Below are positions 13,761-27,273 of a stretch of DNA of 64,000 nt, in pieces (position 1 is the first letter of the stretch; each line of letters starts with the position of its first letter). The stretch is from NCBI GenBank assembly GCA_964429215.1, contig CAYSAY010000002.1:33812-97811 (forward strand), written 5' to 3'. The notes under the pieces were generated by a model. That model ran no database searches and was not told the DNA's origin. It saw only the letters and a list, made by a program, of their open reading frames with translations. The DNA comes from an uncultured Gammaproteobacteria bacterium (GTDB taxonomy: Bacteria > Patescibacteriota > Microgenomatia > UBA8517). The position numbers were made by a program, and so were the translations under genes.

Positions 13761-14606
13761 ATGTATTTTATACCACTTTATATGGATAAATACAAAGCAG
13801 TTTGGGTAAGTCATTCTTCAATTTCAGATTTTTTAGTTTGTCCACGTGCTTATTACCTTCGAAATGTGTATAAAGATCCAAAAACTGGTAATAAAATAAC
13901 TGTAACTTCACCTGCCTTGTCACTTGGCCAGGCTGTTCATGAAGTTGTGGAAAGTCTTTCTGTGTTGCCTGTTGAAGACAGGCTTAAAATATCACTTCTC
14001 AAAAAATTTGATGTTGCCTGGGAGAAAGTATCAGGAAAACTGGGTGGGTTTAAATCAAAAGAGGAGGAAGAGACTTATAAAGAGCGTGGTACAGTAATGC
14101 TTAAAAGAGTAGAAGAACATCCTGGACCTATTTTAAATAAAGCCGTCAAATTGCCTTCTGATTTTATACCTAATTATTATCTCTCTGAGGAAGATGAAAT
14201 AATTCTTTGTGGAAAGATTGACTGGTTGGAATATGTAGAGGCTACTGATTCAGTTCATATTATTGATTTTAAAACTGGTAAAAATGAAGAAGATGGTGAA
14301 TCACTTCAGCTTCCAATTTACTTATTGCTTGCTACAAATTTACAAAGCCGAGCAGTATCAAAGGCATCTTATTGGTATTTGGACAAGTCTGATGATTTGA
14401 TTGAAAAAGAATTACCTAATATCGTTGACAGTAAAGATAAAGTTTTAACTGTTGCTAGACGTATTAAACTTGCAAGGCAACTTAACCATTTTGTTTGTCC
14501 TAAAAATGGTTGTATGAAATGTAGGCCACTTGAAAGAGTTTTAAAAAATGAAGGTGAAAAGGTAGGTACTTCAGATACTAGACAAGATATTTATATTTTG
14601 CCATAA
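13761..14606 (+). CDS. PD-(D/E)XK nuclease, Cas4/RecB-like with Cys cluster
   Basis: GKIDWLE (D) and IIDFKTGK (DxK) core. One N-terminal Cys (VCPRAYY) plus C-terminal CPKNGCMKC, as in Cas4/AddB-type FeS nucleases. Confidence 0.6.
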   Translation: MYFIPLYMDKYKAVWVSHSSISDFLVCPRAYYLRNVYKDPKTGNKITVTSPALSLGQAVHEVVESLSVLPVEDRLKISLLKKFDVAWEKVSGKLGGFKSKEEEETYKERGTVMLKRVEEHPGPILNKAVKLPSDFIPNYYLSEEDEIILCGKIDWLEYVEATDSVHIIDFKTGKNEEDGESLQLPIYLLLATNLQSRAVSKASYWYLDKSDDLIEKELPNIVDSKDKVLTVARRIKLARQLNHFVCPKNGCMKCRPLERVLKNEGEKVGTSDTRQDIYILP

Positions 14607-16218: not shown

Positions 16219-16533
16219 ATGACAATTGAAGATAGGTTACGCGAGATAAGGGGATTAGCTTCACCAAGAAAAATTAATGCGGTTATTCACCCGGTTGAAT
16301 CAGATGCTAACACAATATTCAGTTCTTTACCTGACGATGTAAAAGCAAGATTAGATAGAGGGTCTGGTAAATTAGAAAGAAAAAAAAGATTTCTTAAAAA
16401 TTTGCAATCATTAGTTGAAGGTGGTTTTTCAATATCTCATTTAGTTCAAATGGATGACGAATGTGTAGATAATAAAGGTAGAATTAAAGAAGATAGGCTT
16501 AGAGATATAATCGCTGGCAAACATGACGATTAA
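16219..16533 (+). CDS. hypothetical protein
   Basis: 104 aa, charged, no motif. Confidence 0.35.
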   Translation: MTIEDRLREIRGLASPRKINAVIHPVESDANTIFSSLPDDVKARLDRGSGKLERKKRFLKNLQSLVEGGFSISHLVQMDDECVDNKGRIKEDRLRDIIAGKHDD

Positions 16534-17483
16534 TTTAAATATCTTTTAATTTTTAAATCTTCAAGTAAACTAATTTCAATTTTTAATTTTTCTTTAAAAC
16601 TAAATATTGCTTCATTTTCACCAAATTTATCAAATTCTAATCTTGCCGGGATGTTATCCTTTATCATTTTTGGGAAATCTCCTAATCTATCTCCTGTTAA
16701 AATTAAATGAATTCCTGCATATGCGCCCATTGAAGATAATCTTTTTATTGCATCCTCAATTTCTACACTGTATAGGTTGAAAACTGTACCTATGTAAATA
16801 ATTACAGGAAATTTTTGAGATTCATTTTTATTCAGTATTTCAATTCTTCTATCTATTTCACGAGATAGCCATCTTAGTGCAGATAATGATTTGTCAGTTT
16901 CGTTAATTATTGGAGCAAGAAGATGGGGAATATTATTAAATTTACTAAGATTGTTTGTTGCGTCGTCGATGATTAGTCTGACATCTTCTAAAGTAAACTT
17001 AGATAATAAAAATAATAAATATGTTTTTAGGAATTCATATTTTTTACTGATAATATTACCTGTAACTATTAAATTACCAATTTTACTAAAATCTGTGTTT
17101 AGATACGGTATATCAAGTGGATTGTTTAGAGATTTGACCTCGTCTGGCAAGAAATCAGCAATAATTGGATTATATTTTTTAGTTGGATCAATAAGTTCTT
17201 CTTTTTTCTCAATAATTAACATTTCACTATTCTTTTCCTTAAATTCCTTAAAAGATTTAATTAGTACCTCTCTTGGTCTACTACTACCATCAGAAGGAGT
17301 AAGTACTCCTGTGCTTTGTAATTGATCTATAAGTCTTGCGGCTCTTGCGTATCCGATCGAAAGTCTTCTTTGAAGTAGTGAAGCAGAAGCCCTATCGTAT
17401 TGAATACATGTCTTTACTGCTTCTTCTAATAAATTGTCTGGATCTACTGAAATTCCGGGAACTGATGAATATATATCTATCAT
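16530..17483 (-). CDS. FtsK-like protein with N-terminal gamma (KOPS-binding wHTH) domain and degenerate motor domain (Walker A/B lost)
   Basis: N-terminus DNLLEEAVKTCIQYDRASASLLQRRLSIGYARAARLIDQLQSTGVL matches FtsK gamma. Downstream LEDVRLIID..IPHLLAPI...ALRWLSREIDRR and AGIHLILTGDRLGDFPKMIKDNIPARLEF match the FtsK motor. Walker A is TGNIISKK and the Walker B position reads IIYIGTV instead of DE. Confidence 0.55.
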   Translation of the reverse strand: MIDIYSSVPGISVDPDNLLEEAVKTCIQYDRASASLLQRRLSIGYARAARLIDQLQSTGVLTPSDGSSRPREVLIKSFKEFKEKNSEMLIIEKKEELIDPTKKYNPIIADFLPDEVKSLNNPLDIPYLNTDFSKIGNLIVTGNIISKKYEFLKTYLLFLLSKFTLEDVRLIIDDATNNLSKFNNIPHLLAPIINETDKSLSALRWLSREIDRRIEILNKNESQKFPVIIYIGTVFNLYSVEIEDAIKRLSSMGAYAGIHLILTGDRLGDFPKMIKDNIPARLEFDKFGENEAIFSFKEKLKIEISLLEDLKIKRYLN

Positions 17484-17565
17484 AATTTTAATATAGTCCT
17501 AAAAAAATATATTTGCAAGAGTAGGGGAGTGGAAGGCATAAATTAAATTTGATATACTATAGTAT

Positions 17566-17817
17566 ATGGAAAAAAGAAAATTTGAAGAAGTTGGTTTAAA
17601 TGTTGCTACTAATCATAGAGAGGCTTCTTCTGAGGAAATTCTTGTGGCAATGGCCGTAGCAGGTCGTGCTATTAGCCCTAAAGAATTAGCAGCAATGTCA
17701 GGATATCCACTAACGACCGTAAAAAAGTGTTTAAATATTTTGAAAAGAGAAGCTTTAGTTGAAAAACACAGGGATGGACTGAGATTTTATTATTCACTGA
17801 GAGGAAAGCAAAAATAA
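17566..17817 (+). CDS. small winged-helix DNA-binding protein
   Basis: 83 aa; ISPKELAAMSGYPLTTVKKCLNILKREALVEK..GLRFYY is typical of wHTH. Confidence 0.4.
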   Translation: MEKRKFEEVGLNVATNHREASSEEILVAMAVAGRAISPKELAAMSGYPLTTVKKCLNILKREALVEKHRDGLRFYYSLRGKQK

Positions 17818-17820
17818 TTT

Positions 17821-18123
17821 ATGACTGAAGATCTAAGAATGATAGCGTGTGTACAAGGCAATTTAAATACACAATTGCCAGAAGCAGCTTTTCGCATTTC
17901 ATATGAATCAGGAGGTATACCGATTACTCCGTGTGCTGGATGCCAATTTAAAACTCATTTAGAAAGAATTGCTAAGATTGCAGAAGAAATAGCCAGAGCT
18001 AAAACGATAGGAGTTGCGTTAAAACAACATGAGAAACATGCAGTACTAGTTTTTGAACATAAAGAAAGACTGCATGTTAGATGTACCTGTCGTTGTTGTA
18101 CTGAAGTAGTTAAGGAAGAGTAG
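17821..18123 (+). CDS. Cys-rich hypothetical protein
   Basis: 100 aa; CAGCQFKTH ... RCTCRCCTE clusters suggest metal binding. Confidence 0.35.
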   Translation: MTEDLRMIACVQGNLNTQLPEAAFRISYESGGIPITPCAGCQFKTHLERIAKIAEEIARAKTIGVALKQHEKHAVLVFEHKERLHVRCTCRCCTEVVKEE

Positions 18124-18355
18124 AATTTAAAAAATTTAATCAAATACTGTAAAATACTCCATGGGAATAGAAAGCGAACGAGTTGAATATCAGTTAATTT
18201 AAAACCTGTATATAAAACTACCCCACAAGGGTGGGATTGTAGAAGCTGTATTGATTGAAAAGCCGAAAGTAAATTCAATTTCAATTGAAGAATTACTACT
18301 GAATTAGTTACTTCTGTTTGGAAATAGGTAAGCAAAAGTAAAATTTCATCTAAAT

Positions 18356-18697
18356 ATGGTGATGTACTATAATACCCAAATGCCAGAAATATTAAGATTG
18401 CCAGATTCAGGGCGCACAAATGAATTTTATGCTGATTTTACGTTGAAAGACGATGATGAATTTGTAGTGGTAACAGAAGGTTGGATATTTGCACCACATA
18501 GAGGTAATGAAATGATGGATATAATACAGTCCAAGCTCTCGTTATTAGCTCGTGATAGAAATAAGACCTTCATACATTTATATGAAGCCTCAACTATTGA
18601 AGGTAAAAAATTAGTTCAGCGAAATTCAAGATATAGCTATGTCGGAAGATCACATGCAGGTTATTCAGTTTATAAAGCTGTTTATGAACCAGAGTAA
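18356..18697 (+). CDS. hypothetical protein
   Basis: 113 aa ORF, no motif. Confidence 0.35.
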   Translation: MVMYYNTQMPEILRLPDSGRTNEFYADFTLKDDDEFVVVTEGWIFAPHRGNEMMDIIQSKLSLLARDRNKTFIHLYEASTIEGKKLVQRNSRYSYVGRSHAGYSVYKAVYEPE

Positions 18698-18709
18698 CAT
18701 TTTAGAACT

Positions 18710-18943
18710 ATGACAAACACAATTTTTACAAATAAGGCACTTTCAAAAATGAAAGATGTTGGACTTTCTGAATCCTTAGTGCTTGATGCTTTTAACTCCG
18801 GAATAGTTGAAAAGTGGTCTACTGGAGGTGGGTATAATAGTGTTAAAAAATATAATGGCTACGAAATTGGAGTTGCTTGGCTTCGAGACGAAAAAGGTGC
18901 ATACATAATCACTTCAGTTTGGAAAAGAGATAATAGGAGATAA
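18710..18943 (+). CDS. hypothetical protein
   Basis: 77 aa ORF. Confidence 0.3.
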   Translation: MTNTIFTNKALSKMKDVGLSESLVLDAFNSGIVEKWSTGGGYNSVKKYNGYEIGVAWLRDEKGAYIITSVWKRDNRR

Positions 18944-19003
18944 TCTTATTTGCAATTTATATAGTTGATCTTTCTTCTGTTTTGATCAAAGATCAGAATA
19001 GGT

Positions 19004-19390
19004 ATGAAAATTAGTCGTGACTCGGCAATTCAAATTTTAAAATATTGTGATAAACACAAAAAGTTTAATTTCCCATTCTTTGTAATGTGCAAAGAATATT
19101 CCCCAGAAGATGATGATTTTGTAGAAATTGGACCTGATGAATGGCAAGCAATTGAAGATGATGACACTTATCAAACATTTGAACTGTGGGAAAAACAGCC
19201 TCAATCAGATACAGAGATAATTTTAGATAGATTAAATATCTTAATTAAAAATTACAAAAAGTATTTAAAAAATGAAGCTTCAGATGACGAAAATTCAGAA
19301 TTGTCTGATTTGCATCAGTTCATCTCCGGCAAACTTGATGCATATGTAGAATGTAGAGATATAGTTTTAGAAATTAGTAAAGTTGTATAA
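19004..19390 (+). CDS. acidic hypothetical protein
   Basis: 128 aa, Asp/Glu rich. Confidence 0.35.
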   Translation: MKISRDSAIQILKYCDKHKKFNFPFFVMCKEYSPEDDDFVEIGPDEWQAIEDDDTYQTFELWEKQPQSDTEIILDRLNILIKNYKKYLKNEASDDENSELSDLHQFISGKLDAYVECRDIVLEISKVV

Positions 19391-19400
19391 TAGTTAAAAA

Positions 19401-20168
19401 ATGGATTTAAATTTTGATACAGCCTTGTTAAGTAATTATGTTAGTAATTCTCAAAAAGCAAGAATATTGACTGAAAAATGGACGTTAAATAATATTTATT
19501 GTCCTAGTTGTGGTGACTTTGTTAATGAATATGCAAACAATGCGCCCGTTGCTGATTTTTATTGCTCGAAATGTAATGAAGATTTTGAACTAAAATCGAA
19601 GTCTGGAAAATTTAACGCTTCAATTTCTGCAGGTGCATATTCTGAAATGATTAAAAGAATTAGTTCTAGAGAAAAGCCAAATTTTTTCTTTCTAGAGTAT
19701 GTTGCTAAGTTATTAAATGTGAATGATTTTTTCGTTGTCCCTAAACATTTTATTATCAAAGAAATTATCGAAGAGAGGAAACCTCTAAAAGAAACTGCAA
19801 AAAGAGCAGGTTGGGTAGGCTCAAATATAAAGTTCTCAAAAATACCAAAAGCAGGTCAGATATATTATGTAGAAAAAGGAATAGAAATTCCAAAACCAAT
19901 CGTATTGGAAAAGTGGCAAAAAACTGTATTTTTAAAGAAAGTTGATGATGTTAACGCAAAAGGTTGGATTTTGGACATTATGAATTGTATTGATTCTCTC
20001 AACAAAAAAGATTTTACTTTGCAAAATATATATGCTTTTGAAAACGATTTGTCTGTTATCCATCCTGAAAATAAAAACATAAAGCCTAAAATTAGACAGC
20101 AGTTACAATTCTTAAGAGACAAAGGCTATCTAGAATTTATCGAGGCTGGAAAATATCGACTGAGATAG
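19401..20168 (+). CDS. DpnI-like methylation-dependent restriction endonuclease (PD-(D/E)XK N-domain plus C-terminal winged helix)
   Basis: NSQKARILTEKW, CPSCG...NNAPVADFYCSKCNEDFELKSK, PNFFFLEY, and C-terminal IRQQLQFLRDKGYLEFIEAGKYRL closely resemble my recollection of the DpnI family. Confidence 0.6.
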   Translation: MDLNFDTALLSNYVSNSQKARILTEKWTLNNIYCPSCGDFVNEYANNAPVADFYCSKCNEDFELKSKSGKFNASISAGAYSEMIKRISSREKPNFFFLEYVAKLLNVNDFFVVPKHFIIKEIIEERKPLKETAKRAGWVGSNIKFSKIPKAGQIYYVEKGIEIPKPIVLEKWQKTVFLKKVDDVNAKGWILDIMNCIDSLNKKDFTLQNIYAFENDLSVIHPENKNIKPKIRQQLQFLRDKGYLEFIEAGKYRLR

Positions 20169-20203
20169 TTGACTTTCTTTCAAATTCGATCAATGATCAG
20201 AAT

Positions 20204-20407
20204 ATGGATGAAAAAATCAAAAAATTTCCAAAACATTCTTGTCAATTTTGTGGTTGTGAGCGTAAGTTAGTTGAAACAATTATAGATGATGAGTTTTTTT
20301 GGGATAAAGATGAACAAACATATCAGCCTGATAAGTTTACTGACATTTTTGAACATACTGGCAATAATCGCTGTGTACAGTGTGAAAAAGAATGGTCGGG
20401 TACGTGA
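20204..20407 (+). CDS. small zinc-ribbon protein
   Basis: 67 aa with CQFCGC ... CVQC pairs. Confidence 0.35.
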   Translation: MDEKIKKFPKHSCQFCGCERKLVETIIDDEFFWDKDEQTYQPDKFTDIFEHTGNNRCVQCEKEWSGT

Positions 20408-20441
20408 ATCTTCCGACTAGAAGGGTAATTGATCGCCAGAA

Positions 20442-21061
20442 GTGGTTAGGAATTTAATTTTAAGATATTCAAATGAAGGCGATAATTTGTTAGATCCAAT
20501 GATAGGTGGTGGTACAACTGCTATTGAAGCAAGGATTTTGAATAGGAATATAATAAGTATAGACGTTAATGCAAAAGCTGTTGAGAGAACTATTAAGTGC
20601 CTTCAATTTGATGCCCTAAATTCATCTGTACAAAGTGTGATGGTCGGAGATGCAAGAAACTTAAAAATAGTAAAGGACAAAAGTATTGATTTTGTGTTAA
20701 CTCATCCTCCATATGTAGACATTATAAAATATAGTGATGGCAAATTAGAAAATGATTTGTCTAATATTCATGAGATTGATAAATTCATAGTAGAAATTAC
20801 AAAGTAGCTAAAGAGTTATTTCGTGTACTAAAAAATGGAAAATATTGTGCTATTTTAATAGGCGATACTAGACGAAATAAAATGTATCAACCATTGGCTT
20901 TTAAAGTTATGGATGCATTTTTGAAAGTTGGATTTAAATTAAAAGAAGATATTATTAAAAAACAATTTAATTGTACTGCTACTGGTTTTTGGGTTAAAAA
21001 GTCTAAGGATTTAAATTTTTTGTTAATAATGCATGAACACCTATTTGTATTTCAGAAATAA
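20442..21061 (+). pseudogene. SAM-dependent N6/N4 amino-methyltransferase (DNA MTase-like), disrupted by a -1 frameshift near 20800
   Basis: Frame A: LLDPMIGGGTTAIEA (motif I), IISIDVN, IDFVLTHPPY (motif IV), then TAG at 20805. Frame C from 20801 continues KVAKELFRVLKNGKYCAILIGD...LLIMHEHLFVFQK to TAA at 21059-21061. The shift sits in the run acaaag. Confidence 0.55.
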
Positions 21062-21082
21062 ATTAATTTATAAAATCTTCAG

Positions 21083-21556
21083 GTGTATAATCGAGCCATG
21101 AGGAAAGTGGATGGGAATACTTTAAATGCCAGGATTGGGAGGCATGTTGAAGTGGAGATTGATATTAGAGAGAATTTGGCTTGGAATTTGATGATGCAGG
21201 TGGTTAGATTTTTTGTAGTTCCTGTTAAACTTTTTAATGAATACTTTACAAAATTTAAACTTTCCAAAACTTCAAGATTTTATAATTTAGTTAATTATCC
21301 ATTGTCTGATTATTTATTTAAAAAAACTATTGAAGCAGTAGTTATATTAGGACTATTTAGCATAGGATTATATGCATTTGAATTTGAAGAATTTCAGTTT
21401 ATTGTTGCAATGGTTTTAATTGCTTTAATATTATTTTTGCCGGCATTTTTAAAAATTTTGTTTTTGGCTTTTGTAATGCTTGTTGAGTTGATTGTGAGAA
21501 TTATTAAATCAATCTTTTTTACAGTTAAATCATTGGTTACTGAAAGGACTTATTAA
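21083..21556 (+). CDS. hypothetical membrane protein
   Basis: 157 aa, C-terminal hydrophobic helices; start uncertain. Confidence 0.3.
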   Translation: MYNRAMRKVDGNTLNARIGRHVEVEIDIRENLAWNLMMQVVRFFVVPVKLFNEYFTKFKLSKTSRFYNLVNYPLSDYLFKKTIEAVVILGLFSIGLYAFEFEEFQFIVAMVLIALILFLPAFLKILFLAFVMLVELIVRIIKSIFFTVKSLVTERTY

Positions 21557-21570
21557 ATATAAATTTGAAG

Positions 21571-21622
21571 TTTGTATACATGTTTTAAAAGATGTATACA
21601 AAGTACACCAGTTTGTATACAT
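21571..21622. promoter_or_regulatory. three copies of 11-nt motif TTTGTATACAT (two direct at 21571 and 21612, one inverted at 21592) about 20-21 nt apart, followed by TATATAAT -10-like box
   Basis: Read directly; all three centre on GTATAC. The array lies in the 85 nt upstream of the DUF3800 gene start at 21642. Confidence 0.4.
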
Positions 21623-21641
21623 TAGGGTATATAATTAATAT

Positions 21642-22226
21642 ATGGATAACAACCTGTTATTTATTGATGAATCTGGTGACCATAGCTTAAATAATATTAA
21701 TTCTGACTTTCCAATATTTGCATTATTAGGATTAATAATTGAAGAATCAAGTTATAAAATACTAATTAATGAAGTTAATGACTTTAAAAATAAATATTTT
21801 AAGACAACTAGTGTCGTATTACATAGTAGAGAAATAAGAAAATGCGAAGGCGTGTTTGCAATCCTTTTTGACTTAAAAGTTAAGGAGGAATTTTATAAGG
21901 ATTTAAATTCAATTATTACAAATACAAACTTTATGCTTGTTTCTTCTGCAATACTAACTTTAGCAAAGCGTTATAACGAGCTTTTATATAAAGGTAGTGG
22001 TGTTGTCTCTTCAGGAAGATTTGTAAATAGATATAATCAGGAATTGTTATTTAAACGCAAAAGCCAAAATGATATAGGATTACAATTAGCTGATTTGTGT
22101 GCATACCCAATAGCAAGACATGTGTTGTATCCAGAAGAGCCCTATCCGGCGTTTGAAATAATTAGGAGTAAAATTCGAAACAATCGTGGAAAAGTTGAAG
22201 GTTTTGGAATTAAGATATTTCCTTAA
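21642..22226 (+). CDS. DUF3800 family protein
   Basis: N-terminal LLFIDESGD and C-terminal GLQLADLCAYPIAR are characteristic of DUF3800. Confidence 0.55.
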   Translation: MDNNLLFIDESGDHSLNNINSDFPIFALLGLIIEESSYKILINEVNDFKNKYFKTTSVVLHSREIRKCEGVFAILFDLKVKEEFYKDLNSIITNTNFMLVSSAILTLAKRYNELLYKGSGVVSSGRFVNRYNQELLFKRKSQNDIGLQLADLCAYPIARHVLYPEEPYPAFEIIRSKIRNNRGKVEGFGIKIFP

Positions 22227-22290
22227 AAAAACAAAAAGCCTTCTTTCGAAGACCTTTTGCCGATCGGGGACACCCCGGTCCATTCTTATT
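22227..22290. terminator. bidirectional terminator region between convergent genes
   Basis: A stem in aaaaagccuucuuucgaagaccuuuug and the GC hairpin cggggacaccccg. On the - strand the hairpins are followed by a U-run (ttttgttttttt). Confidence 0.45.
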
Positions 22291-22328
22291 ATATACCACA
22301 TCTGTCAAGTTTAGCAAACTAGATCAAA

Positions 22329-23702
22329 TTATATCAATTCCTTTAATTTTTCCCAGATTTTGACCATGGCGAGGGTGTCTAGGCCACAGTATTCTAATAA
22401 TTCTTTTGCTTTTGATTTGTCTGTTGTGTGGATTAACTCCCACCAAACTAGCATTGCTTGATCGCCTTTGTTTACAGCCAACTTTTTATATGAGAGGTCT
22501 GGAACCATTACAGGTAAAACATTTTTGATTGACCAACTGCCTAGGAAGTCTGGATGAATGTAGAGTTCTTTGTTAATGAAATCTGCTAGGTCTATCATTC
22601 TACTATTTACATCATCCAAAAATTCTTTGTATTCTGGATATAATCCTGCAATGTCTTTATTTCTTTCAAATTCAAAAGTTTTATTCCAGACTACTACTGA
22701 AGCAGCATCTTTAATGTCCTCTTTTAGTTTTTTAATTAAATTTACTGATGGGTCACCTAATTCAGTTTCTAAATATTCTTGATGCATCATTGTTCCGTCA
22801 CTCTCTACTATGTGCAATGAATACTGGAAAACCATATGTTGATATGGCTTGTAGCCTTTATAAATTGGAATTGCTAGCGGGTAAGTTTCATAATCTAAAA
22901 AGTAAATTGGAAAAACAAAAGTATTTAAAAAGTCTGATAATCCTGTTGCATTTAAATATGGAGTATTTGATTTAATTATATTTTTGATTAACGTTTGTTT
23001 AGGTGAAAGTGGAAAACTGTCTGGGATATCTTTGATTTCTAAAATCCTTGAATCTTTTAACTCTCTTTTCTTCTGTGGGTGGAGGGCTGGGATATGGTAA
23101 ATTGATTTTTCTGGTAAATTTGGGTGACAAAGTGAGATACATGGGCAGGACTTAGGATCTAAACATGTTTCTACATGGTCTGGAGTGTCTTTACCTGCCA
23201 CTTTTTCTGCTTCCATCATTTTCTCCTGTATTTCTATGGTTAGTTCCATTACTTCATTTGTAACGTCGTTTATTTGGAAGAGTTCTTTGATATTTAGTGA
23301 ATCTGATAATATATATTCTTTGTTTAAATTAACTACATATACTTTATTTATTTTAATTGTTTTACTTTTTACAATGTATTGGAAAGTGGCATCATATAAA
23401 TGTTCTTTTTCTACTTTGGTGGTACTTTTAACTTCATATAAATCGTAGGTATCATCAGTATTTTTAATTAATGCATCTGACCTTGATTCAAAACCATTTG
23501 AAATAAAGGTTTCTTGCCAAATTGCATGGGGGAGAAGTTTGTGGGCTAGAGTTTCAACTTCATAACCTTGCTTCATTAAATGTTGGTCATATACTGATGG
23601 AGTAAGGTTATTTAATTTGTTGTGCTTATCTGCCCAGAGATGCATAGGGGACTTTAAAAAAAGTAGAAAGTCTGATTTTGCGATCATTTTAATATTATAC
23701 AA
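22329..23702 (-). CDS. DUF2779-like predicted nuclease (PD-(D/E)XK-like N-terminus, RNase H-like C-terminus)
   Basis: MIAKSDFLLFLKSPMHLWADKH start, DLYEVKS, CxC pair, and FLDYETY resembling a DEDD-like exonuclease motif. Confidence 0.5.
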   Translation of the reverse strand: MYNIKMIAKSDFLLFLKSPMHLWADKHNKLNNLTPSVYDQHLMKQGYEVETLAHKLLPHAIWQETFISNGFESRSDALIKNTDDTYDLYEVKSTTKVEKEHLYDATFQYIVKSKTIKINKVYVVNLNKEYILSDSLNIKELFQINDVTNEVMELTIEIQEKMMEAEKVAGKDTPDHVETCLDPKSCPCISLCHPNLPEKSIYHIPALHPQKKRELKDSRILEIKDIPDSFPLSPKQTLIKNIIKSNTPYLNATGLSDFLNTFVFPIYFLDYETYPLAIPIYKGYKPYQHMVFQYSLHIVESDGTMMHQEYLETELGDPSVNLIKKLKEDIKDAASVVVWNKTFEFERNKDIAGLYPEYKEFLDDVNSRMIDLADFINKELYIHPDFLGSWSIKNVLPVMVPDLSYKKLAVNKGDQAMLVWWELIHTTDKSKAKELLEYCGLDTLAMVKIWEKLKELI

Positions 23703-23745
23703 CTTTTAATTAATTCTATTGACTTCGGTTTGAGTTTGGGTTAAA

Positions 23746-24770
23746 TTGAATAGAATGACCATTCCTAAAGAAATGATAATTTACAAAACTCCAAATGGTG
23801 ATGTAAAAGTTGAAATTCTATTAAGAGGCGAAAATATCTGGCTTACTCAAAAGACAATATCTAAATTATTTGATTGTTCTATAGATAATGTATCGCTTCA
23901 TTTAAAAAACATTTTTAAGGAAGGAGAACTGTCAGAGAATTCAGTTGTCGAGGATTACTCGATAACTGCTGAAGATGGAAAAAGTTACAAAACAAAACAT
24001 TATAACTTTGATGCTGTCATAGCTGTTGGTTATAGAATTAATTCAATAAAAGCTACACAGTTTAGAATTTGGGCAACCAAAATAATAAAAGAATATATAA
24101 TTAAAGGCTTTGTCATGGACGATGAGAGGTTGAAAGATCCAGACTATATTTTTGGCAAAGATTATTTTGAGGAACAACTGGCAAGAGTTAGGAATATTCG
24201 TTCAAGTGAACGAAGAATGTATCAAAAAATTACTGATATTTATTCAGAATGTAGCGCTGATTACGATTCAGATAGTGATATTACTAAAAAGTTTTTTGCT
24301 ACAGTTCAAAATAAACTACATTTTGCAATTACAGTCAAACAGCAGCTGAAATAATATGTAAAAGAGTGGACAGTAGAAAAAAAGATTTAGGATTAACTAC
24401 TTGGAAAAATGGGCCAGTGGGCAGTATTCGAGAAACTGATGTAATTATAGCTAAAAATTATTTAAATGAAAGCGAACTAGATCAATTGAATAGAATAGTT
24501 ACAATGTATTTAGATTATGCAGAATTCCAAGCAAAAAACAGAGTTGCTATGTATATGAAAGACTGGATTGAAAAATTAGATGCATTTCTTCAATTTAATG
24601 AAAAAAACATACTTTTTGATTATGGGAAAGTGAGTAATAAAGTTGCAGAAAAGTTGGCAATTAAAGAATATAAAAAGTATAAGATTGCAAAAGATAGAAA
24701 TTATTTTTCAGATTTTGATAATGTTGTTAAAAAATATCTAAATTATCAAAAAAATGAAGTTAAAATTTAA
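23746..24770 (+). pseudogene. RhuM family protein, split by a 1-nt deletion in an A-run near 24337-24339
   Basis: ORF1 23746..24354 (WLTQKTISKLFDCSIDNVSLHLKNIF..., FRIWATKIIKEY) is the RhuM N-half. ORF2 24366..24770 (LGLTTWKNGPV..VIIAKNYLNE) is the C-half in another frame. The other frame across the junction reads TAAEIICKRVDSRKKDLG, which fits the family. Confidence 0.6.
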
Positions 24771-25959
24771 AAGAATATATAGTGTTGTTAAAATAAACAT
24801 TAAGAAATTTATATTTCCTTTGTGGCTTTTACCCTTAAAACTTATTACTTATCCTGTTTATTTTTCATTTTATTTAACTTGGAAAATTATATCTTGGCCT
24901 TTTCGTAAGTGGTCTAACTTTTTTAAGTGGATATTCTGGAGTTTCACGATTATTTATTTCCTTTTTTCTTTACTAGTCATTTTTGATTACTTAAGTCGAG
25001 AATATGGAAGTTTTGATAAAATGTTTTGTGGTACTGGAGTTAAGACTAAACTTCAAAATTCAGTAGTTAGAATAATTGGTGGAGAAGGCGAAGGATCTGG
25101 ATTTTTCATAACTCCTACTGAAGTTGTAACAAATTTCCATGTAATTGCTGATGAACCTAGTCCTAAAGTAGTATTTCCTGATGGGACATTTCAAACGCCT
25201 AAAAAGATTGTGGGTGATAAAAAGATGGATATTGCTGTTTTGACATTGGATAAAGAGTTCCCTGAAATGGTTTATGAATTACCTGAAAAACTTGGTCTTG
25301 TCGCTGATGAACCACTTCTTTCAGCAGGTTTTCCACTTGGGTCTGAAGTTGTTGGCGGTGTTTCTATTGTAAAAGGTAATTTTATAGAATTTAGAAGAAG
25401 TAGAAAAGATGTAGTAAGTTACATTCAAACTAGTTTAAGTTTAGTCCCAGGAATGAGTGGTGGGCCTCTAGTAGACCAATGCGGTCAAGTTGTGGGGGTT
25501 AACACAATGAGCCTTGCTGGAATATCATTTTTTATAACTGCCTCTGACGTTAAAGCAAGTCTTCCTAACCTTACTGATCAAGAAATAGTTAAAATTAATG
25601 TTGATCCCAAAAAATCTCCTGATCAAGCTGTGTATGCGTTTTATACATATTTGAAAGCACGTAACATGGAAAAGGGATATAACTTACTTAGTGCAAAGTA
25701 CTTAGAAAAGACAAATTATACAGAGTGGACAAATAGATTTACTGATATATTGGATGTAAACATAGTTTTGACGGAACTTGTTGAAGACAGTGATACTCAA
25801 GTATTTGTAAAATTTGGAACTACTAACTGGGTGGATGGAGAAACTGAATATCATTTCTATGAAGGTACTTGGGATACTGTAAATGAGGAGGGGACTTATA
25901 AAATGGATAAAAGTAAGATAAAAGAAGTAACTGAACCTAACTGGGAGTGGTTTTATTAA
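24754..25959 (+). CDS. membrane-anchored trypsin-like serine protease (S1 family) with C-terminal uncharacterised domain
   Basis: N-terminal TM helices; catalytic triad contexts TNFHVIA, DIAVLTL, GMSGGPL. Confidence 0.65.
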   Translation: MKLKFKRIYSVVKINIKKFIFPLWLLPLKLITYPVYFSFYLTWKIISWPFRKWSNFFKWIFWSFTIIYFLFSLLVIFDYLSREYGSFDKMFCGTGVKTKLQNSVVRIIGGEGEGSGFFITPTEVVTNFHVIADEPSPKVVFPDGTFQTPKKIVGDKKMDIAVLTLDKEFPEMVYELPEKLGLVADEPLLSAGFPLGSEVVGGVSIVKGNFIEFRRSRKDVVSYIQTSLSLVPGMSGGPLVDQCGQVVGVNTMSLAGISFFITASDVKASLPNLTDQEIVKINVDPKKSPDQAVYAFYTYLKARNMEKGYNLLSAKYLEKTNYTEWTNRFTDILDVNIVLTELVEDSDTQVFVKFGTTNWVDGETEYHFYEGTWDTVNEEGTYKMDKSKIKEVTEPNWEWFY

Positions 25960-27199: not shown

Positions 27200-27273
27200 T
27201 GGAGCTGGTGGGTAGAATCGGACTACCGTCGATGGTTTACGATACCACTGCTCTGCCACTGAGCTACACCAGC
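27200..27273 (-). tRNA. tRNA-Thr (anticodon CGU), CCA encoded
   Basis: rc folds as GCUGGUG/CACCAGC acceptor, GCUC/GAGC D-stem, GUGGU/ACCAU anticodon stem with loop AUCGUAA, GGUAG/CUACC T-stem, discriminator U, CCA. Confidence 0.8.

Follow-up and report, generated by a model that had tools for sequence, protein, structure and literature searches.

What use might a bacterium make of an FtsK homologue that keeps its DNA-reading domain and appears to have lost its motor? FtsK is the standard example of a fast DNA pump, and its gamma domain has been seen almost exclusively as an appendage that steers the pump and activates Xer recombinases. The question is raised by a minus-strand gene (16530-17483) on a 64,000-nucleotide stretch of contig CAYSAY010000002.1 (assembly GCA_964429215.1), referred to below as the window, which the initial annotation had described as an FtsK homologue with the gamma domain first and inactivated ATPase motifs. 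In the family to which this gene belongs, the sequence-reading domain is under strong selection while the pump has been dismantled, in small-genome bacteria of the Candidate Phyla Radiation (CPR) that also keep a normal FtsK. The protein is very probably neither a motor nor an ATPase. We propose, at a probability of about 45%, that it binds DNA sequence-specifically and regulates its own promoter, the dead motor domain acting as an oligomerisation scaffold.

An FtsK homologue with reversed domain order

The open reading frame (ORF) begins with ATG and encodes 317 amino acids followed by a stop codon, and an identical protein (P0001) is encoded on a metagenome contig of 241,893 bp. The gene and its parts are listed here with the supporting analyses in brackets.

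16530-17483, minus strand: gene for the putatively motor-dead, gamma-first FtsK paralogue (ORF list; Pfam FtsK_gamma and FtsK_SpoIIIE)
17259-17438, minus strand: FtsK gamma winged helix, residues 16-75 (Pfam; AlphaFold2 model)
17109-17258, minus strand: linker, residues 76-125, partly disordered (AlphaFold2 confidence; alignment A1)
16533-17108, minus strand: degenerate RecA-like (FtsK beta) domain, residues 126-317 (Foldseek; Pfam FtsK_SpoIIIE)
17037-17063, minus strand: remnant P-loop TGNIISKKY, residues 141-149 (alignments A1 and A4)
16785-16805, minus strand: remnant Walker B strand VIIYIGT, residues 227-233 (alignment A1; column statistics; AlphaFold2 model)

Pfam recognised both halves of the protein above the family cut-offs. 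FtsK_gamma covers residues 16-75 with 80.4 bits (cut-off 30.6; E = 7.9e-23), and FtsK_SpoIIIE covers residues 130-220 and a second stretch with 51 bits (cut-off 24; E = 1.7e-13). When PDB sequences were searched with phmmer, the top match was Pseudomonas aeruginosa FtsK (2iut, E = 2.7e-24), and Escherichia coli FtsK was found at 1e-19. Residues 13-74 of the query aligned with residues 499-559 of the 2iut chain, and residues 128-217 with 207-297. Since the N-terminal part of the query corresponds to the gamma domain at the C-terminus of FtsK and its middle part to the motor core, the domain order is reversed, and the protein stops directly after the beta domain. The NCBIfam score was 73.6 bits against 1566 for the FtsK equivalog, and all scores lay far under family-level cut-offs, so the protein is an FtsK homologue and not an FtsK orthologue.

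An AlphaFold2 (AF2) model of the 317-residue protein, built on 89 family sequences, had a mean predicted local distance difference test score (pLDDT) of 86.4 and showed a three-helix winged helix, a disordered linker and a RecA-like core. The gamma part is made up of helices at residues 19-26, 34-41 and 45-57 and a wing strand at 71-73. In the linker, residues 91-100 fall below a pLDDT of 50, and a conserved Y-x-P...FLP segment aligns with the boundary between the FtsK alpha and beta domains. The best Foldseek matches for the model were the FtsK motor structures 6t8o, 2ius and 6t8b (E about 2e-14), followed by the degenerate D2 and D3 domains of EssC/EccC. Domain profiles, structure matches, alignment and modelling all bore out the annotated gamma-first homology, and every peptide string quoted in the initial annotation occurs in the translation.

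The gamma domain is the better preserved half. It matched the solved gamma domains 2ve8 and 2j5o at E about 5e-9 and is 66-69% identical to the C-terminal gamma domains of canonical CPR FtsKs, whereas the motor part reaches only 33-34%. Using our own mapping of E. coli numbering from the PDB phmmer alignment, the recognition and XerD-contact residues R1289 and R1300 are kept as R39 and R50, with R39 invariant in the family, while E1303 is replaced by Asp53 and N1296 by Ala46. The gamma domains of canonical CPR FtsKs carry these same two changes. In E. coli, R1289 is a key residue of the XerD-contacting gamma surface and lies in the alpha2-alpha3 loop (PMC5052618).

Probable loss of motor function

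The query and its relatives were aligned with three canonical CPR FtsKs (alignment A1), and functional residues were mapped from those named for P. aeruginosa FtsK (PaFtsK) in a cryo-EM study of FtsK on DNA (PMC7321959). At Walker A, canonical AGQTGSGKS corresponds to TGNIISKKY in the query, with the first glycine and the lysine kept and both later glycines and the Ser/Thr lost. At Walker B, canonical LLIDELAD (hhhhDE) corresponds to IIYIGT within VIIYIGT, with a four-residue deletion and Gly-Thr in place of Asp-Glu. The altered Walker A and the Gly-Thr replacement had been read from the single sequence in the initial annotation, and the loss of both motifs holds across the family and not for one copy only; an acidic pair is present at the Walker B position in none of the 89 members examined by column statistics. 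In the AF2 model, the remnant P-loop sits at the expected strand-loop-helix position (strand 138-141, helix 148-162) and the remnant Walker B at the end of the strand spanning 227-233.

The decay extends to parts of the motor that act on neighbouring subunits and on DNA. The arginine finger, R620 in PaFtsK, corresponds to Ala254 in the query subgroup, and a second group of about 380 residues has an arginine one position off this site. Pore loop I (PaFtsK K657/R661), the main contact with the DNA backbone (PMC7321959), falls within a 20-residue deletion, and pore loop II (R632...K643) is two residues shorter with R266 and K275 retained. A Pfam scan of the protein gave no match to the alpha domain PF17854 at E up to 1, a domain present in the canonical CPR FtsKs P0306 and P0264.

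Taken with the Walker changes, these losses strongly argue against ATP-driven translocation of double-stranded DNA, and in the query subgroup engagement of DNA by a ring pore is predicted to be gone as well. The earlier judgement that ATP hydrolysis is very unlikely is supported and is in fact conservative, as the motif decay goes beyond what had been described. The protein belongs to the FtsK/SpoIIIE superfamily by homology, yet judged by its residues it lacks what makes a translocase functional. What is left of the P-loop is itself conserved, following the pattern G-N-x-[I/L]-S-x-K across the 89 members (G142 100%, N143 88%, S146 99%, K148 98%).

A conserved CPR family that coexists with canonical FtsK

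A first homologue search returned 2,067 matches, and among the best 120, inspected for layout, about 105 had the gamma-first arrangement at 300-395 residues without GxxxxGK[ST] at the P-loop. A profile search of 1.84 billion cluster representatives found the same collinear layout in at least 25 clusters at 50% identity, none of them with a Walker A motif. The named sources are all CPR/Patescibacteria (Candidatus Dojkabacteria, Woesebacteria, Microgenomates and 'Patescibacteria group'); this taxonomic range comes mainly from the source names of homologue matches, and a scan of species-representative genomes with alignment A3 gave 6 loci. Two size classes were apparent, one of about 310-320 residues that is 44-80% identical to the query and one of about 375-390 residues (36-41%) that retains the segment deleted around pore loop I in the shorter class. 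As a separate matter of labelling, two GTDB representative genomes, L012 and L013, are titled 'uncultured Gammaproteobacteria bacterium' yet carry the CPR-type gene, its promoter element and the same neighbours, and their labels look wrong.

Lost catalytic motifs and internal deletions are also what a functionless, decaying remnant of a duplicated ftsK would show. However, hundreds of sequences at 36-80% identity have an intact reading frame, many alignment columns are invariant or nearly so, the degenerate P-loop included, and the gene has its own conserved promoter element (described below). This family-wide conservation effectively refutes decay, which we consider extremely improbable. On these comparisons, the family is best described as a conserved CPR-specific FtsK paralogue and not a remnant.

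The gamma-first protein P0027 and the canonical FtsK P0306 (696 residues, with alpha, beta and gamma domains) were recovered from one sample, and for each the longest contig listed measures 841,695 bp. This co-occurrence identifies the gamma-first protein as an extra copy and not a replacement. No canonical ftsK lies within the 64-kb window.

Proteins with a gamma-alpha-beta-gamma layout and an intact P-loop were also found, namely P0162 and P0145, the latter with additional C-terminal TIR domains. These are plausible evolutionary intermediates on a route where an N-terminal gamma domain would have been gained first and the C-terminal gamma domain, the alpha domain and catalysis lost later. 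Among P0124, P0134 and P0149/P0094/P0098, together with P0145 and P0162, further gamma architectures occur, including alpha-beta proteins with three gamma domains and proteins of about 250 residues made of two gamma domains only. A separate oddity is P0045, in which the first two-thirds of a C5 DNA methylase is fused in frame to a dead beta domain without gamma, its beta part being 71% identical to query residues 124-316. It is known from a single metagenome contig of 1,308 bp, and we set it aside as a probable assembly chimera or rearrangement at an island junction.

No family members were found in IMG/VR viral contigs, and matches in phage databases were ordinary FtsK-like proteins below 36% identity, so a phage or viral origin was rejected. 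Within full-text literature, whose coverage leaves out most subscription journals, we found no earlier account of FtsK paralogues in CPR bacteria that place gamma first and have a dead motor. Partial precedents are known in phage terminase gamma domains and in the conflict-system FtsK modules predicted to be inactive.

An invariant element at the promoter

The DNA upstream of the gene carries two features.

17512-17531, minus strand: conserved promoter element CACTCCCCTACTCTTGCAAA, with the invariant core ACTCCCCTACTCTTG at 17516-17530
17490-17518, minus strand: putative sigma-70-like promoter, with TTGCAA (-35, 17513-17518), a 17-nt spacer and TATATT (-10, 17490-17495)

A cross-genome alignment of the upstream regions showed a conserved block, [C/T]ACTCCCCTACTCTTG[C/T]AA, amid AT-rich DNA that is otherwise unalignable. 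The 15-bp core was identical in all seven independent loci compared, the proteins of which diverge to as little as 56% identity. Each locus (roughly 6-21 kb) has one copy, the window has a single copy even when up to 3 mismatches are allowed, and the element is the source of the only 11-13-mers common to all seven upstream regions. No Rfam family matched in the intergenic region, and the element is absent from the canonical ftsK promoter of the organism that encodes P0027. The exact 15-mer was also present in at least 120 metagenome loci; among the matches listed, only 2 had the gene, and the rest, including L116, were chance matches in unrelated organisms.

Read along the gene strand, the order is CCCTACTC, TTGCAA (-35), 17 nt, TATATT (-10), 6 nt and ATG. 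The putative promoter was found independently by a promoter scan, and other loci show the same geometry. Because the ATG lies 6 nt after the -10 box, the mRNA is likely to be leaderless or nearly so. The -35 hexamer is self-reverse-complementary and lies within an 82-bp divergent intergenic region; it could also serve the divergent winged helix-turn-helix (wHTH) gene, and the conserved element would then lie in the spacer of that promoter.

The element directly abuts the -35 box and is asymmetric and G-rich. It is non-palindromic, like the FtsK orienting polar sequences (KOPS) read by gamma domains. Its plus strand reads GAGTAGGG at 17519-17526, which fits GAGNAGGG, the B. subtilis SpoIIIE/FtsK motif (Table 1 of PMC3384302), and is one position off the E. 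coli KOPS, GGGNAGGG. We also considered an att- or dif-like recombination site bounding the cassettes next to the gene (see below). This idea is not supported, as a further copy within 3 mismatches was absent from every locus and no other word is common to the islands.

Proposed autoregulation by a non-motor DNA binder

We base the following proposal on what was observed: the architecture, the missing catalytic and pore residues, conservation throughout the family, the presence of a canonical FtsK alongside and the invariant promoter element. The gamma winged helix would supply DNA-sequence specificity, and the dead RecA-like domain would be an oligomerisation scaffold that groups several gamma domains. 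Three gamma domains occupy one KOPS, and a lone motif or a lone domain gives poor binding (PMC5052618, PMC3384302); this weak hold of one gamma domain on its 8-bp target is why oligomerisation is proposed. The assembly would sit on GAGTAGGG(GAGTG), the asymmetric G-rich sequence that directly abuts the -35 box, and would thereby control expression of its own gene, most simply by repression. A precedent for an N-terminal gamma domain joined to a non-motor partner exists in a phage small terminase (PMC8190038). The possibility that the protein is a regulator, raised in the initial annotation, gains indirect support from this element, which resembles KOPS and the SpoIIIE recognition sequence (SRS) and lies at the gene's own -35 box.

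Several observations weigh against this proposal. The divergent members at L009 (46% identity), L011 and L018 (the group of about 380 residues) are without the element and have the same recognition helix, so autoregulation through it is at most a subgroup trait. The word GRGNAGGG has 4 matches in the window against 4.3 expected, split two and two between the strands, and is likewise unskewed in the other loci. KOPS-like behaviour of the motif was rejected on these counts, and reading of this word by CPR gamma domains is unsupported here; skew of sub-words is uninformative, since the whole window has positive GC skew. Some other regulator could bind the element. A pure scaffold role also does not account for the conservation of G142, S146 and K148 in the P-loop, where a ligand may still be bound.

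If the protein does bind the element, a KOPS-type reader would clearly have been put to new use as a transcription factor. The 15-bp sequence would then be a concrete candidate for the DNA word of CPR gamma domains, and the gene a handle on a conserved defence-island hot-spot in CPR genomes.

Comparison with known FtsK-like systems

The beta and gamma domains are homologous to those of the FtsK/SpoIIIE translocases, which combine PF01580, PF17854 and PF09397 (E. coli and P. aeruginosa FtsK, B. subtilis SpoIIIE). Unlike these, the query has its gamma domain at the N-terminus, is without alpha domain or membrane anchor, and measures 317 residues against about 700 for a canonical CPR FtsK. It retains neither the Walker motifs nor the arginine finger, and of its two pore loops the first is deleted and the second shortened. 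P0162 and P0145 share the N-terminal gamma domain ahead of the motor, but in them the alpha domain is present, Walker A is intact and a further gamma domain sits at the C-terminus, none of which holds for the query.

Gamma domains on non-translocase partners have been described in the Bacillus phages Sam46 and Sam112, which have an N-terminal FtsK_gamma on the small terminase, and stand-alone gamma-like ORFs are also known from phages (PMC8190038). In both the phage fusion and the query, gamma is presumably a sequence-recognition module. The partners differ, being Terminase_2 in a phage and a dead FtsK beta domain on a cellular chromosome, and Pfam found no terminase domain in the query protein. 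FtsK ATPase domains likewise predicted to be inactive, in or near defence contexts, have been reported from conflict systems (Kaur et al. 2020, PMC7159879). Those modules are effectors in multi-domain or multi-gene systems of multicellular prokaryotes, whereas the query is a stand-alone single gene with its own promoter, a gamma domain and no constant partner.

The D2 and D3 domains of EssC/EccC, from type VII secretion, are also FtsK-family RecA-like domains with little or no catalysis that act as regulatory or interaction modules. They lie within a large membrane protein with an active D1 and still bind nucleotide, while the query domain stands alone with a DNA-reading winged helix and without secretion context. 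Neither family level was reached by NCBIfam scores (30 bits against a cut-off of 778 for EssC, 27 against 347 for EccCb).

In EssC/EccC such degenerate domains regulate the active one, which invites the idea that the CPR protein modulates the real FtsK, its dead beta domain joining or capping FtsK rings or competing with FtsK for KOPS-type loading sites. Co-occurrence with canonical FtsK, nearly identical gamma domains and a RecA-like fold kept at high model confidence are all consistent with this. However, the protein has no alpha domain, a contributor to the FtsK ring, and the query subgroup has lost the arginine finger, which would act on the ATP of a neighbouring subunit. Nor is there genomic linkage with ftsK, or a skewed KOPS-like word to compete for in the sequence available. 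We therefore regard modulation of FtsK as improbable, and autoregulation through the promoter element remains the reading we prefer.

A variable defence island beside the gene

On its promoter side, the gene borders a cluster of restriction-modification (R-M) and other defence genes.

17566-24770, plus strand: variable defence/R-M island (Pfam; called genes of L001, the window locus)

In the window this island starts with the divergent wHTH gene (17566-17817, plus strand), which encodes 83 amino acids with weak, sub-threshold Pfam matches to HTH_IclR and MarR_2. It continues with small ORFs, DpnI (19401-20168), a methyltransferase fragment, DUF3800, DUF2779 on the minus strand and two RhuM genes, and ends at an HtrA-like Trypsin_2 gene (24754-25959). 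R-M or defence genes border the promoter side in all eight independent genomes of the query subgroup, and the cargo is different each time.

L001 (the window): wHTH, small ORFs, DpnI, methyltransferase fragment, DUF3800, DUF2779, RhuM
L003: C5 methyltransferase, C-protein-like HTH, three unknown proteins
L004: N4/N6 methyltransferase, MutH-like nuclease, ThsB-TIR
L005: DUF3800, RhuM, type I R-M system
L007: Bro-N, DUF3800, DpnI, PD-(D/E)XK
L009: DUF2130, Vsr, C5 methyltransferase
L012: Dam methyltransferase, DUF6996/6997, N4/N6 methyltransferase
L013: RhuM, DUF5655, 1,367-residue ResIII-Eco57I enzyme

No constant partner gene was found across the eight genomes. The divergent wHTH gene and small ORFs pointed out in the initial annotation are indeed present beside the gene, but they are variable cargo of the window genome and not conserved partners. 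The HtrA-like Trypsin_2 gene closes the far end of the island in five of the eight genomes, and the other flank of the gene is housekeeping, with Ddl, asparaginyl-tRNA synthetase (AsnRS), NUDIX and cell-envelope genes. Such an arrangement is typical of a variable hot-spot flanked by two core genes. Adjacency to defence genes persists across protein divergence down to 46% identity.

This adjacency could mean that the protein is a component or regulator of the island, for instance a sequence sensor that controls R-M genes or aids cassette acquisition. Two of three genes in the group of about 380 residues likewise have R-M systems nearby, the relative P0145 has a defence-style fusion to TIR domains, and conflict systems have been reported to contain inactive FtsK ATPase modules (PMC7159879). 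The position of the element in a short divergent intergenic region with a palindromic TTGCAA, which could act both ways, fits as well. Against a role in the island, the cargo changes in every genome with no constant partner, the Trypsin_2 boundary marks a hot-spot between core genes, and the gene's opposite flank is housekeeping. PADLOC gave only weak domain-level matches (SspH and mad8, E about 1e-4), and the family is absent from IMG/VR. We consider an island function unlikely. For the part of the initial annotation that suggested a defence or mobile-element component, the evidence is circumstantial.

The mad8 match belongs to the MADS system (mad1-mad8), for which an operon with MAD6, MAD7 and MAD8 is mandatory (bioRxiv 10.1101/2023.03.30.534895). 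Scans with the MADS models gave mad8 at E = 2.2e-4 for the protein and mad1 at E = 6e-3 for the neighbouring wHTH, and none of the other scanned neighbours matched. MADS or SspH membership was rejected, the matches being weak and partial and the mandatory operon lacking. Membership in a defence system is not supported, and we do not file the protein as a component of one.

Another role that fits a gamma domain is that of a translocation-independent Xer activator, in which gamma would switch on a XerD-type recombinase without pumping, for dimer resolution or island rearrangements. The invariant R39, counterpart of the XerD-contact residue R1289, would suit such a role, and a short gamma peptide is enough to activate XerD (PMC5052618). 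Xer-type genes (Phage_int_SAM_1 plus Phage_integrase) lie 2-5 kb away in two of three loci of the group of about 380 residues, together with the R-M systems. In the query subgroup, however, no tyrosine recombinase lies within 10 kb at any of eight loci, and neither a second copy of the element nor another shared site exists inside the islands or at their far edge. The GC skew of the window keeps its sign, so this is not a terminus or dif region, and a canonical FtsK with the same gamma domain is present for Xer activation. Direct Xer activation is thus a doubtful explanation.

A more far-reaching idea combines these elements. The dead FtsK would be the fixed 'address protein' of a chromosomal defence-island platform, binding the invariant KOPS-like site at the island edge and recruiting or activating Xer-type recombinases, or blocking FtsK, so that R-M and other defence cassettes are captured and exchanged at a single conserved locus. 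If true, this would be a functional analogue of the integron platform built from cell-division parts without a dedicated integrase. We hold it to be very unlikely, and regulation of its own promoter by a non-motor DNA binder is the reading we retain for this protein.

Other observations at the locus and its relatives

At L018 and on the contig encoding P0081, both of the subgroup of about 380 residues, the gene adjoins a SOS-response-associated peptidase (SRAP) gene. A XerC/D-type tyrosine recombinase lies at 2-5 kb, and a type I or type IIG R-M system is nearby.

Within the window island, the DpnI-type methyl-directed enzyme (19401-20168, plus strand) is full-length (Pfam DpnI, E = 1.7e-70, plus DpnI_C) and adjoins a 121-residue fragment of an N6/N4 DNA methyltransferase (20442-20807, plus strand). 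The pairing suggests that a methyltransferase has decayed or been replaced next to a methylation-dependent nuclease. On the far side of the island, just past the Trypsin_2 gene and a 381-residue ORF, lies a tRNA-Thr gene (CGT; 27200-27273, minus strand), a possible integration target.

On the conserved side of the gene, a Cas4-like PD-(D/E)XK nuclease is encoded at 13761-14606 (plus strand; PDDEXK_1, E = 5.5e-22), and the synteny of this nuclease gene with the Big_6 and Wzy_C genes is shared by L003. GC content across positions 1-64000 is about 32%. Almost all 2-kb bins have positive GC skew, and the plus strand carries most of the long ORFs. The whole window appears to lie on one replichore with a strong gene-strand bias.

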